A program made the position numbers and the translations under genes. Source: Escherichia coli (GTDB lineage Bacteria; Pseudomonadota; Gammaproteobacteria; Enterobacterales; Enterobacteriaceae). Taken from it: DNA of 64,000 nucleotides. The notes beneath the pieces were generated by a model that saw only the letters and a list, made by a program, of their open reading frames with translations, did not search any database and was not told the origin of the DNA. The stretch is taken from the NCBI RefSeq assembly GCF_003334405.1, contig NZ_QOWM01000003.1. One strand, written 5' to 3'. The first letter of the stretch is position 1, and each line of letters opens with the position of its first letter. Positions 23,044 to 25,734 of this stretch are shown in pieces.

Positions 23044-24056
<1,013 letters not shown>

Positions 24057-24232: not shown

Positions 24233-24763
24233 ATGGAAAATAAATATTCAAGGTTACAAATCAGCATTCACTGGCTGGTCTTTTTACTGGTTATCGCAGC
24301 GTATTGCGCAATGGAGTTTCGTGGTTTCTTCCCACGTAGCGATCGGCCACTCATCAACATGATTCATGTTTCCTGTGGCATCTCAATTCTCGTGCTGATG
24401 GTCGTTCGTCTTTTGTTAAGGCTGAAATACCCAACCCCGCCGATTATACCTAAGCCAAAACCGATGATGACGGGACTGGCGCATTTGGGACATTTGGTGA
24501 TTTATCTCCTGTTTATTGCGCTGCCAGTGATTGGTTTGGTGATGATGTATAACCGGGGCAACCCGTGGTTTGCGTTTGGTTTGACGATGCCTTACGCTTC
24601 AGAGGCCAATTTCGAACGGGTAGATAGCTTAAAGTCGTGGCATGAAACGCTGGCGAATCTGGGATATTTTGTCATCGGGTTGCACGCTGCGGCTGCACTG
24701 GCACACCACTATTTCTGGAAGGACAACACACTTCTACGCATGATGCCGCGTAAACGTTCCTGA
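24233..24763 (+). CDS. cybB: Cytochrome b561
   Basis: ATG at 24233 preceded by aggaaa; multi-helix membrane protein with conserved His. Confidence 0.9.
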   Translation: MENKYSRLQISIHWLVFLLVIAAYCAMEFRGFFPRSDRPLINMIHVSCGISILVLMVVRLLLRLKYPTPPIIPKPKPMMTGLAHLGHLVIYLLFIALPVIGLVMMYNRGNPWFAFGLTMPYASEANFERVDSLKSWHETLANLGYFVIGLHAAAALAHHYFWKDNTLLRMMPRKRS

Positions 24764-24773
24764 AGGATATTTA

Positions 24774-24837
24774 AAGAAAACGCCTGTACTAAAACCGACC
24801 CGTGGTACAGGCGAAGAATACGGGTCTACATCGGAAG
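24774..24837 (-). ncRNA. rydC: Hfq-dependent small RNA RydC
   Basis: Minus-strand sequence CTTCCGATGTAGACCCGTATTCTTCGCCTGTACCACGGGTCGGTTTTAGTACAGGCGTTTTCTT matches RydC as I recall it; 3' hairpin cgcctgtac / gtacaggcg followed by UUUUCUU is visible directly. Confidence 0.7.
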
Positions 24838-25007
24838 CGCCTATTATATTTATTTGTATGATAAATAAAACCATAATCCTTGCCCATACGTCCATCTGGC
24901 TTATTTTTAATCAATTCACCCGATCTTTGATCTCATCAACGGTATCAAAATAAACCAGCGTATAACGTTCAAATCGAACATAAGATTCGATAAACCATGG
25001 AGGTTAT

Positions 25008-25181
25008 ATGAAAAAACTGGCACTTATTTTGTTTATGGGAACGCTTGTTTCCTTTTATGCCGATGCCGGGCGCAAACCCTGTTCTGGTTCGAAAGGGGGG
25101 ATCTCACACTGTACGGCAGGCGGCAAATTTGTCTGTAATGATGGTTCTATTAGTGCATCGAAAAAAACATGCACTAACTGA
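25008..25181 (+). CDS. ydcA: Small secreted, Cys-containing protein (57 aa)
   Basis: ATG with ggagg RBS; signal-peptide-like N-terminus MKKLALILFMGTLVSFYADA. Confidence 0.7.
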   Translation: MKKLALILFMGTLVSFYADAGRKPCSGSKGGISHCTAGGKFVCNDGSISASKKTCTN

Positions 25182-25252: not shown

Positions 25253-25439
<187 letters not shown>

Positions 25440-25460
<21 letters not shown>

Positions 25461-25505
25461 TCGTTGGCCTCGGTTGATAGAAATATCGGTCGGGGCCTTC
25501 GTCTT
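25440..25505 (+). ncRNA. sokB: Putative Sok-type antisense RNA over the mokB start (boundaries approximate)
   Basis: Position antisense to the mokB initiation region; plus-strand hairpin 25466-25497 followed by U-rich tract; inferred from hok/sok architecture. Confidence 0.35.
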
Positions 25506-25734
25506 TCTGATTCCCGGTTAGCCTGAAAACAGAAAGTCTCAGGCACCCGCAGGCATCCTATGAGGTTTCCTTAGGGACGAAAATAATCACTTCACGAAAT
25601 TGCGTGCTGTTTTCCAGAATTTTTCGTCATTCGGGTTAGCCAGTTTAGCCATTCGTTACTCTCTTCATTCCAATAGCATTAATTTTCTATGCAATAATTG
25701 TTGTAAAAATGTGACGCAAAGAGGTTTTTGGTCA

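Follow-up and report, generated by a model that had tools for sequence, protein, structure and literature searches.

The small RNA gene rydC beside cybB in Escherichia coli: a conserved pseudoknot RNA with a candidate YieP operator in its promoter

RydC is a trans-acting small RNA whose stability requires both Hfq and a pseudoknot, as documented by a crystal structure showing RydC together with Hfq and by stability data obtained in vivo (PMC4337610). Hfq takes up the U-tail of the RNA at its proximal face, and its rim is contacted by the UU steps of the RNA's loops; the mutations G37C/G39C in helix 1 destabilise RydC (PMC4337610). The 5' end is described as the seed (PMC4337610, PMC6755755). 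The best established target is the long isoform of the cfa mRNA: by pairing with its 212-nt leader, the seed hides an RNase E site and so activates cfa (PMC6755755, PMC11340327). Weaker repression of trpE, pheA, csgD and yejABEF has been described as well (PMC6755755, PMC11340327). Under standard conditions rydC is nearly silent (PMC11340327). The GntR family regulator YieP represses it, and deletion of yieP raises the expression of a rydC'-lacZ fusion about 20-fold (Bianco et al. 2024, PMC11340327). On northern blots, no strain other than the yieP deletion and an ectopic-expression control gave a detectable RydC signal (PMC11340327).

The window analysed here is a 64-kb stretch of an E. coli contig (64,000 nucleotides). 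Its minus strand reads CUUCCGAUGUAGACCCGUAUUCUUCGCCUGUACCACGGGUCGGUUUUAGUACAGGCGUUUUCUU at positions 24774-24837. A scan of the whole window with Rfam cmscan placed the RydC family RF00505 at 24837..24774 on the minus strand, over model positions 1-64 of 64, with 92.5 bits (gathering score 48) and an E value of 5.2e-17. This was the only RydC match in the entire 64 kb and one of two matches above the gathering score in the Rfam 15 scan. The rydC gene of K-12 MG1655 (annotated as 'ncRNA rydC, b4597, small regulatory RNA RydC' at 1491442..1491506, minus strand) has 65 nt and is exactly window 24773-24837, at 100% identity; at its 3' end, the K-12 feature extends beyond the Rfam model by one nucleotide. 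Over these 64/65 nt the two strains share the sequence and the strand of the RNA, its neighbours, pseudoknot, seed and terminator, and the -10 element. The RNA shows no difference at all. Five substitutions separate the 9 kb around the locus from MG1655, and all of them lie outside rydC and its promoter, which have none.

The preliminary description, made from the letters alone, had recognised a 64-nt minus-strand RydC at 24774-24837 and had named the lack of an Rfam or BLAST match as what would speak against it. The full-length match to RF00505 at 92.5 bits and the identity to b4597 bear the identification out, and no observation speaks against it. As the stretch is identical to an annotated and experimentally studied gene, a chance explanation is far exceeded. 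The RNA at 24774-24837, with its transcription start site at 24837, is an exact and correctly delimited rediscovery of a gene that is already known, annotated and well characterised. The present analysis covers its identity and coordinates, the conservation and covariation of its structure, the sequence matches of promoter and operator and the complementarity between seed and cfa. Hfq binding, cfa activation, repression by YieP and the mapped 3' end come from the literature on the identical sequence.

The anatomy of the RNA can be followed from its 5' end, all parts lying on the minus strand. The single-stranded seed occupies nt 1-11 (CUUCCGAUGUA, 24827..24837). The 5' arm of pseudoknot stem 1 follows at nt 12-18 (GACCCGU, 24820..24826) and pairs, in the Rfam consensus structure, with the 3' arm at nt 35-41 (ACGGGUC, 24797..24803). 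The 5' arm of stem 2, which is also the terminator hairpin, lies at nt 25-33 (CGCCUGUAC, 24805..24813) and was found in both the minimum free energy (MFE) fold and the centroid fold; its 3' arm at nt 49-57 (GUACAGGCG, 24781..24789) was supported by the fold and by pair counting. The molecule ends with the U-rich tail UUUUCUU (nt 58-64, 24774..24780), which is the U-tract of the terminator and the site bound by the proximal face of Hfq (PMC4337610). Nucleotides 7-12 (window 24826-24831) read AUG followed immediately by UAG, a minimal start-stop ORF that is probably incidental.

Taken alone, stem 1 consists of 7 bp with -10.5 kcal/mol and stem 2 of 9 bp with -13.8 kcal/mol. Because the 3' arm of stem 1 sits in the loop closed by stem 2, the helices are interleaved in an H-type pseudoknot. 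The MFE fold of RydC contains the stem 2 hairpin only, and with z = -0.48 it is no better than that of shuffled sequences; this value is expected and is no counter-evidence, since the folding program cannot predict pseudoknots. For the same reason, the pseudoknot was tested by counting pairs in an alignment of homologues.

Homologues were retrieved with a pattern made of the seed and the 5' arm of stem 1 (CTTCCGATGTNGACCCGT) from contigs representing one genome per species, which yielded 13 loci. Rfam confirmed RydC in nine of the 13, from Escherichia, Salmonella enterica arizonae and five Citrobacter. Three loci from metagenome-assembled genomes (L010, L013 and L019) were discarded as chance 17-mer matches in which Rfam found no RydC, and one Salmonella locus (L017) was cut off. 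The alignment comprised 11 sequences from three genera: eight of the nine confirmed homologues, the window and two divergent E. coli variants. The ninth homologue (L009), with an Rfam score identical to that of L008, was left out. The sample for covariation is narrow, because the pattern could pick up neither variants with GGCCCGU nor any homologues from Klebsiella or Enterobacter whose stem 1 differs. According to the literature, rydC of Klebsiella and Enterobacter aerogenes lies at another place in the genome.

In both helices, all 144 of the 144 pair cells in the 11-sequence alignment hold standard pairs (100%). When the 3' partners were moved by one to three columns as a control, 28-46% of the cells were paired. 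Four of the nine pairs of stem 2 are changed on both sides (G-C to A-U, U-A to C-G, A-U to G-C and C-G to U-A). Stem 1 varies by G-U wobbles only and shows no compensatory change in the 11 sequences; its invariance is partly imposed, because the retrieval pattern fixed the 5' arm outside E. coli. Nucleotides 1-12 are invariant throughout the alignment and the seed is unpaired in the pseudoknot, nt 1-10 being fixed by the pattern for the sequences from outside E. coli. The UU steps of both loops and the U-tail, which are the Hfq contacts, are present and conserved in the same 11 sequences. RydC of this locus is thus an H-type pseudoknot of two interleaved helices with support from covariation. 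Compared with the window, the RNAs of Salmonella and Citrobacter have the same 5' seed and stem 1, and their stem 2 is kept by compensatory changes.

The 3' ends of the transcript are known from Term-seq in MG1655, which mapped very strong primary rydC ends to 1491443 and 1491442 on the minus strand (Adams et al. 2021, PMC7815308). Their scores are 1.25e6 and 2.4e6, respectively (PMC7815308, supplementary file 1). These positions correspond to window 24774 and 24773 and define an RNA of 64 or 65 nt. The 9-bp hairpin formed by nt 25-33 and nt 49-57 is followed directly by UUUUCUU, as in a Rho-independent terminator. The terminator hairpin with a UUUUCUU tail that the preliminary description had pointed out is therefore present, and Term-seq ends fall there. 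The terminator scan missed it because its 15-nt loop exceeds the limit of the scan. An internal mini-hairpin at 24812..24798 that the scan proposed was dismissed as an artefact of the interleaved stems. Transcription from 24837 stops at the stem 2 hairpin and UUUUCUU, at 24774/24773, which is 9-10 nt short of the cybB stop codon. Downstream of the RydC 3' end by about 20 nt, and inside the end of cybB, the minus strand has a further terminator-like hairpin (24733-24754), which could serve as a back-up stop for readthrough from rydC.

Upstream of the RNA, the minus strand reads ...TTTATTTATCATACAAATAAATATAATAGGCG, after which the transcript begins with C. The sigma-70 promoter read from this sequence has a perfect -10 hexamer, TATAAT, at 24843..24848 on the minus strand (-11 to -6). 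On inspection of the sequence, the promoter contains no recognisable -35 element, in line with the published description of a perfect -10 and no obvious -35 (PMC11340327). A scan with the sigma-70 consensus misses the promoter on account of this poor -35. The scan proposed TGGGCA and TATCAT separated by 17 nt at 24886..24858, and this candidate was dropped as incompatible with the annotated transcription start site at 24837.

The spacer of the promoter contains a palindrome, ATTTGTATGATAAAT, at 24852..24866, i.e., at -15 to -29 of rydC. It is a candidate operator for YieP, a regulator of the GntR/FadR type. The motif derived for YieP by ChIP-exo is atTTGTaTGAcaAAT (Nguyen-Vo et al. 2020, PMC7642389), and the palindrome matches it at 14 of 15 positions. 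It is the sole site in the 64 kb with at most one mismatch to the motif, where 0.01 would be expected. The second-best YieP-like site (60507-60521, ATCTGTAGGACAAAT) has two mismatches and is not above chance at that stringency. The YieP operators at yohJK and ykgEFG have the same 15-bp A/T-rich palindrome with a TTGT-n3-ACAA core. In contrast to them, one half-site at 24852-24866 is imperfect in both the window strain and K-12, with GATAAAT instead of GACAAAT. The palindrome is conserved in the promoter spacer upstream of rydC in Escherichia, Salmonella and Citrobacter, mostly as a perfect ATTTGTATGACAAAT; in Salmonella and Citrobacter, TATAAT and a YieP-type palindrome stand upstream of the gene as they do in the window.

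The match at 14 of 15 positions fits the reported repression of rydC by YieP, and the palindrome at 24852-24866 is most likely a YieP operator, judging from its sequence. A combined ChIP-exo and RNA-seq analysis shortlisted rydC and ydcA as YieP targets (PMC7642389). According to the discussion in a later paper, an earlier ChIP-exo YieP regulon did not list rydC; that paper also reports that RegulonDB, when searched, had no binding site for a transcription factor in the promoter of rydC (PMC11340327). Since one ChIP-exo study thus had no rydC in its regulon, direct binding of YieP at 24852-24866 is something we infer. By occupying the promoter spacer, YieP would occlude RNA polymerase and so keep rydC normally off.

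As for the regulatory output, nt 3-11 of RydC can pair with positions -107 to -99 of the K-12 cfa leader over 9 bp, including one G-U, at -12.6 kcal/mol. This pairing is only moderately unusual, as 20 of 1000 shuffled seeds do as well. The duplex abuts the RNase E site GG|AUUAU, whose position was taken from the literature (PMC6755755). The pseudoknot leaves nt 1-11 single-stranded while the U-tail and the UU steps of the loops hold RydC on Hfq. Pairing of the seed at -107 to -99 of cfa covers the RNase E site, also counteracts Rho and raises the level of cyclopropane fatty acid synthase. The account as a whole, namely rydC with a sigma-70 promoter held by YieP, an intrinsic terminator, an Hfq-bound pseudoknot and a seed that pairs with cfa, is considered almost certainly correct.

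The neighbours of rydC are the same as in K-12. On its 3' side lies cybB (cytochrome b561 / superoxide oxidase, 24233..24763, plus strand), an exact match to K-12 b1418 that encodes an identical protein of 176 aa. On its 5' side, ydcA (25008..25181, plus strand) is divergent, with a 170-bp intergenic region in common with the rydC promoter. The stop codon of cybB, TGA, is found at 24761-24763 and the 3' end of the RNA at 24774. The two genes are therefore convergent and 10 bp apart, just as the preliminary description had it; in K-12 numbering the gap is 9 nt, because the K-12 rydC feature has 65 nt instead of 64. The 10-nt spacer that lies between the two genes (24764..24773, AGGATATTTA) holds no separate terminator for cybB.

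In Salmonella and Citrobacter, at the loci examined, cybB also lies on the 3' side of rydC as in the window, but the spacing is wider. The distance from rydC to cybB is roughly 80-1650 nt in S. enterica arizonae, Citrobacter NCU1 and C. amalonaticus. Citrobacter sp. R56, Awk4 and C. koseri differ from the window in another way: their gap measures about 48 nt and contains an intrinsic terminator dedicated to cybB. This canonical plus-strand terminator reads, for instance in sp. R56 (L007, 5745-5771), GCCCCGCATCTGCGGGGT followed by TTTTTCTTT, and it is likewise found at the other two loci (L012 and L011). All Escherichia sequences examined have a cybB-rydC gap of 9-12 nt and contain no such terminator. 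Among the loci examined, Escherichia alone combines the tight abutment with the lack of a cybB terminator. Since no terminator belongs to cybB in E. coli, the cybB mRNA probably runs into the rydC region, and most likely the transcripts continue through rydC in antisense orientation. Overlap of the cybB and rydC transcripts is thus likely from the sequence, and an overlap of their termination points is unsupported by the mapped ends.

Other readings of the stretch and of its junction with cybB were weighed. According to one of them, 24774-24837 would be part of a small protein gene (a 53-aa ORF at 24895..24734, minus strand) or a chance hairpin. Two minus-strand ORFs in the mechanical ORF listing, 24734-24895 and 24789-24914, do span the region. 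Their start codons, however, lie upstream of the transcription start site at 24837, and for this reason the coding reading of the ORFs was rejected. Moreover, the transcript ends at 24774/24773, within the ORFs, and the substitutions between genera keep base pairs, not codons. The full-length Rfam match (E = 5e-17) argues against a small protein and a chance hairpin alike, which leaves this reading with a negligible probability. The RydC hairpin has also been considered as a shared bidirectional terminator that ends both the cybB and the rydC transcripts. The idea has some appeal: the 10-nt gap contains no cybB hairpin or U-run, so that something further on must stop cybB, the 9-bp GC-rich stem forms on the plus strand too, and it has been proposed in general that collisions drive bidirectional termination at pairs of convergent E. 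coli genes (bioRxiv 10.1101/2022.10.23.513370). On the plus strand, however, the stem 2 hairpin is followed by AAGAAUAC and the stem 1 hairpin by UACAUCGG, and neither is a U-run. A bidirectional terminator has an A-tract upstream and a U-tract downstream of its hairpin, and this arrangement is not seen at the RydC hairpin. The terminator scan gave no plus-strand terminator-like sites in 24700-25010, and Term-seq under three conditions detected no plus-strand 3' end in 1491443-1491799, i.e., between cybB and ydcA (PMC7815308). Nor did mapped 3' ends of both transcripts fall in one element, the only ones being those at 24774/24773 on the minus strand. With no plus-strand U-tract or terminator and no plus-strand 3' ends, the shared terminator is unsupported and appears improbable. 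Like the collision-type terminators described by SEnd-seq, cybB/rydC is a convergent pair whose gap is very short and which has a single strong hairpin between the genes. Unlike them, it lacks a U-tract on the strand of cybB, and no 3' ends mapped for the two strands overlap, so membership in this class is unsupported; the collision paper mentions neither cybB nor rydC (bioRxiv 10.1101/2022.10.23.513370). Of the earlier suggestion that the two genes may terminate within overlapping sequence, the likely overlap of the transcripts stands, and the common site of termination finds no plus-strand U-run, terminator or 3' end in its favour.

A further reading is that the cybB mRNA of Escherichia reads through rydC, so that its 3' UTR would be a perfect 64-nt antisense of RydC and allow cis-antisense cross-talk by transcriptional interference, by RNase III cleavage or by sponging of RydC. 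In Escherichia there is no terminator for cybB ahead of rydC or within it, whereas a canonical one is kept in Citrobacter. With z = -1.8, the plus-strand fold of 24740-24870 has a modest stability advantage over its shuffles, and a U-rich stretch follows it. The only nearby plus-strand end in Term-seq is a weak one at 1491416, window 24747 (score 1024, PMC7815308). It lies inside cybB and within the 24733-24754 hairpin, and it precedes the first base of the stop codon by 14 nt and the 3' end of RydC by 26 nt. The same study reports no Rho-termination region that names cybB or rydC (PMC7815308). Against cross-talk, the papers naming both genes treat cybB and rydC as neighbours, among the matches listed. 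Since rydC is nearly silent in standard conditions and cybB 3' ends were undetected, the interplay may be negligible. Readthrough with cross-talk is on balance doubtful. Still less probable is the evolutionary version, in which a Citrobacter-type cybB terminator would have been lost in Escherichia, the cybB mRNA then running antisense through rydC or the polymerases colliding. Equally, it is unlikely that a cis-antisense interplay of cybB mRNA and RydC is functionally important. The preferred account of the locus is still that of rydC as an independent gene with its own promoter and intrinsic terminator. If the antisense reading were true, RydC abundance, and through it cfa and membrane cyclopropanation, would be tied to the expression of the superoxide oxidase CybB by way of the cybB 3' UTR.

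Some other features were observed near the locus and its relatives. The Rfam family 'sok antitoxin' (RF01794, 109.7 bits) matches 25397-25548 on the minus strand, a stretch that ends at the hokB start codon and covers the hokB/mokB mRNA leader. K-12 has its sokB annotation (window 25450-25506) on the plus strand, so that the strand of the match is at odds with the name of the family. E. coli E69 carries two tandem Rfam matches of the hok/sok type beside rydC (L009, 1742-1894 and 2238-2389), and the window has one. At about 23044-24044 on the minus strand, a glyceraldehyde-3-phosphate dehydrogenase frame is split into several ORFs. This broken frame is the known gapC pseudogene, frameshifted and with an internal stop, between aldA and cybB. 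In C. koseri (L011, 3981-4053), a fluoride riboswitch lies about 4.6 kb from rydC.

Within the species, rydC is almost universal. Of 5426 complete E. coli genomes, 5412 have a single copy of the 64-mer, and the 1.2-kb stretch around it matches 5417. It is at least 99% identical in 4064 genomes and 95-99% identical in 1346; these 1346 of the 5412, about a quarter, have one to three differences in the 64-mer. A13G is a common allele, to which some strains add A35G and changes in loop 1. Divergent alleles came from E. coli WL297, EcPF7, E9 and CRECJHTL34 (L003-L006). Both A13G and A35G affect stem 1, and the altered positions still pair, as G-U wobbles.

The preliminary description had remarked that the RNA is absent from the ORF track. 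The same holds for the RefSeq E. coli records annotated with PGAP that were inspected: among the matches listed (H9 and H13-H52), none has a feature beneath rydC, and only the curated K-12 record names the gene. A track based on ORFs or on PGAP would consequently miss a functional regulator. As a discovery the locus matters little, since rydC has stood in the K-12 annotation for some two decades and has been studied both structurally and genetically. Its value is that of an annotation check, as a gene missing from PGAP-type tracks means that a regulator of membrane lipid composition and acid resistance is overlooked. For specialists, the published YieP motif maps onto the spacer of the rydC promoter, at a palindrome that is conserved across genera.
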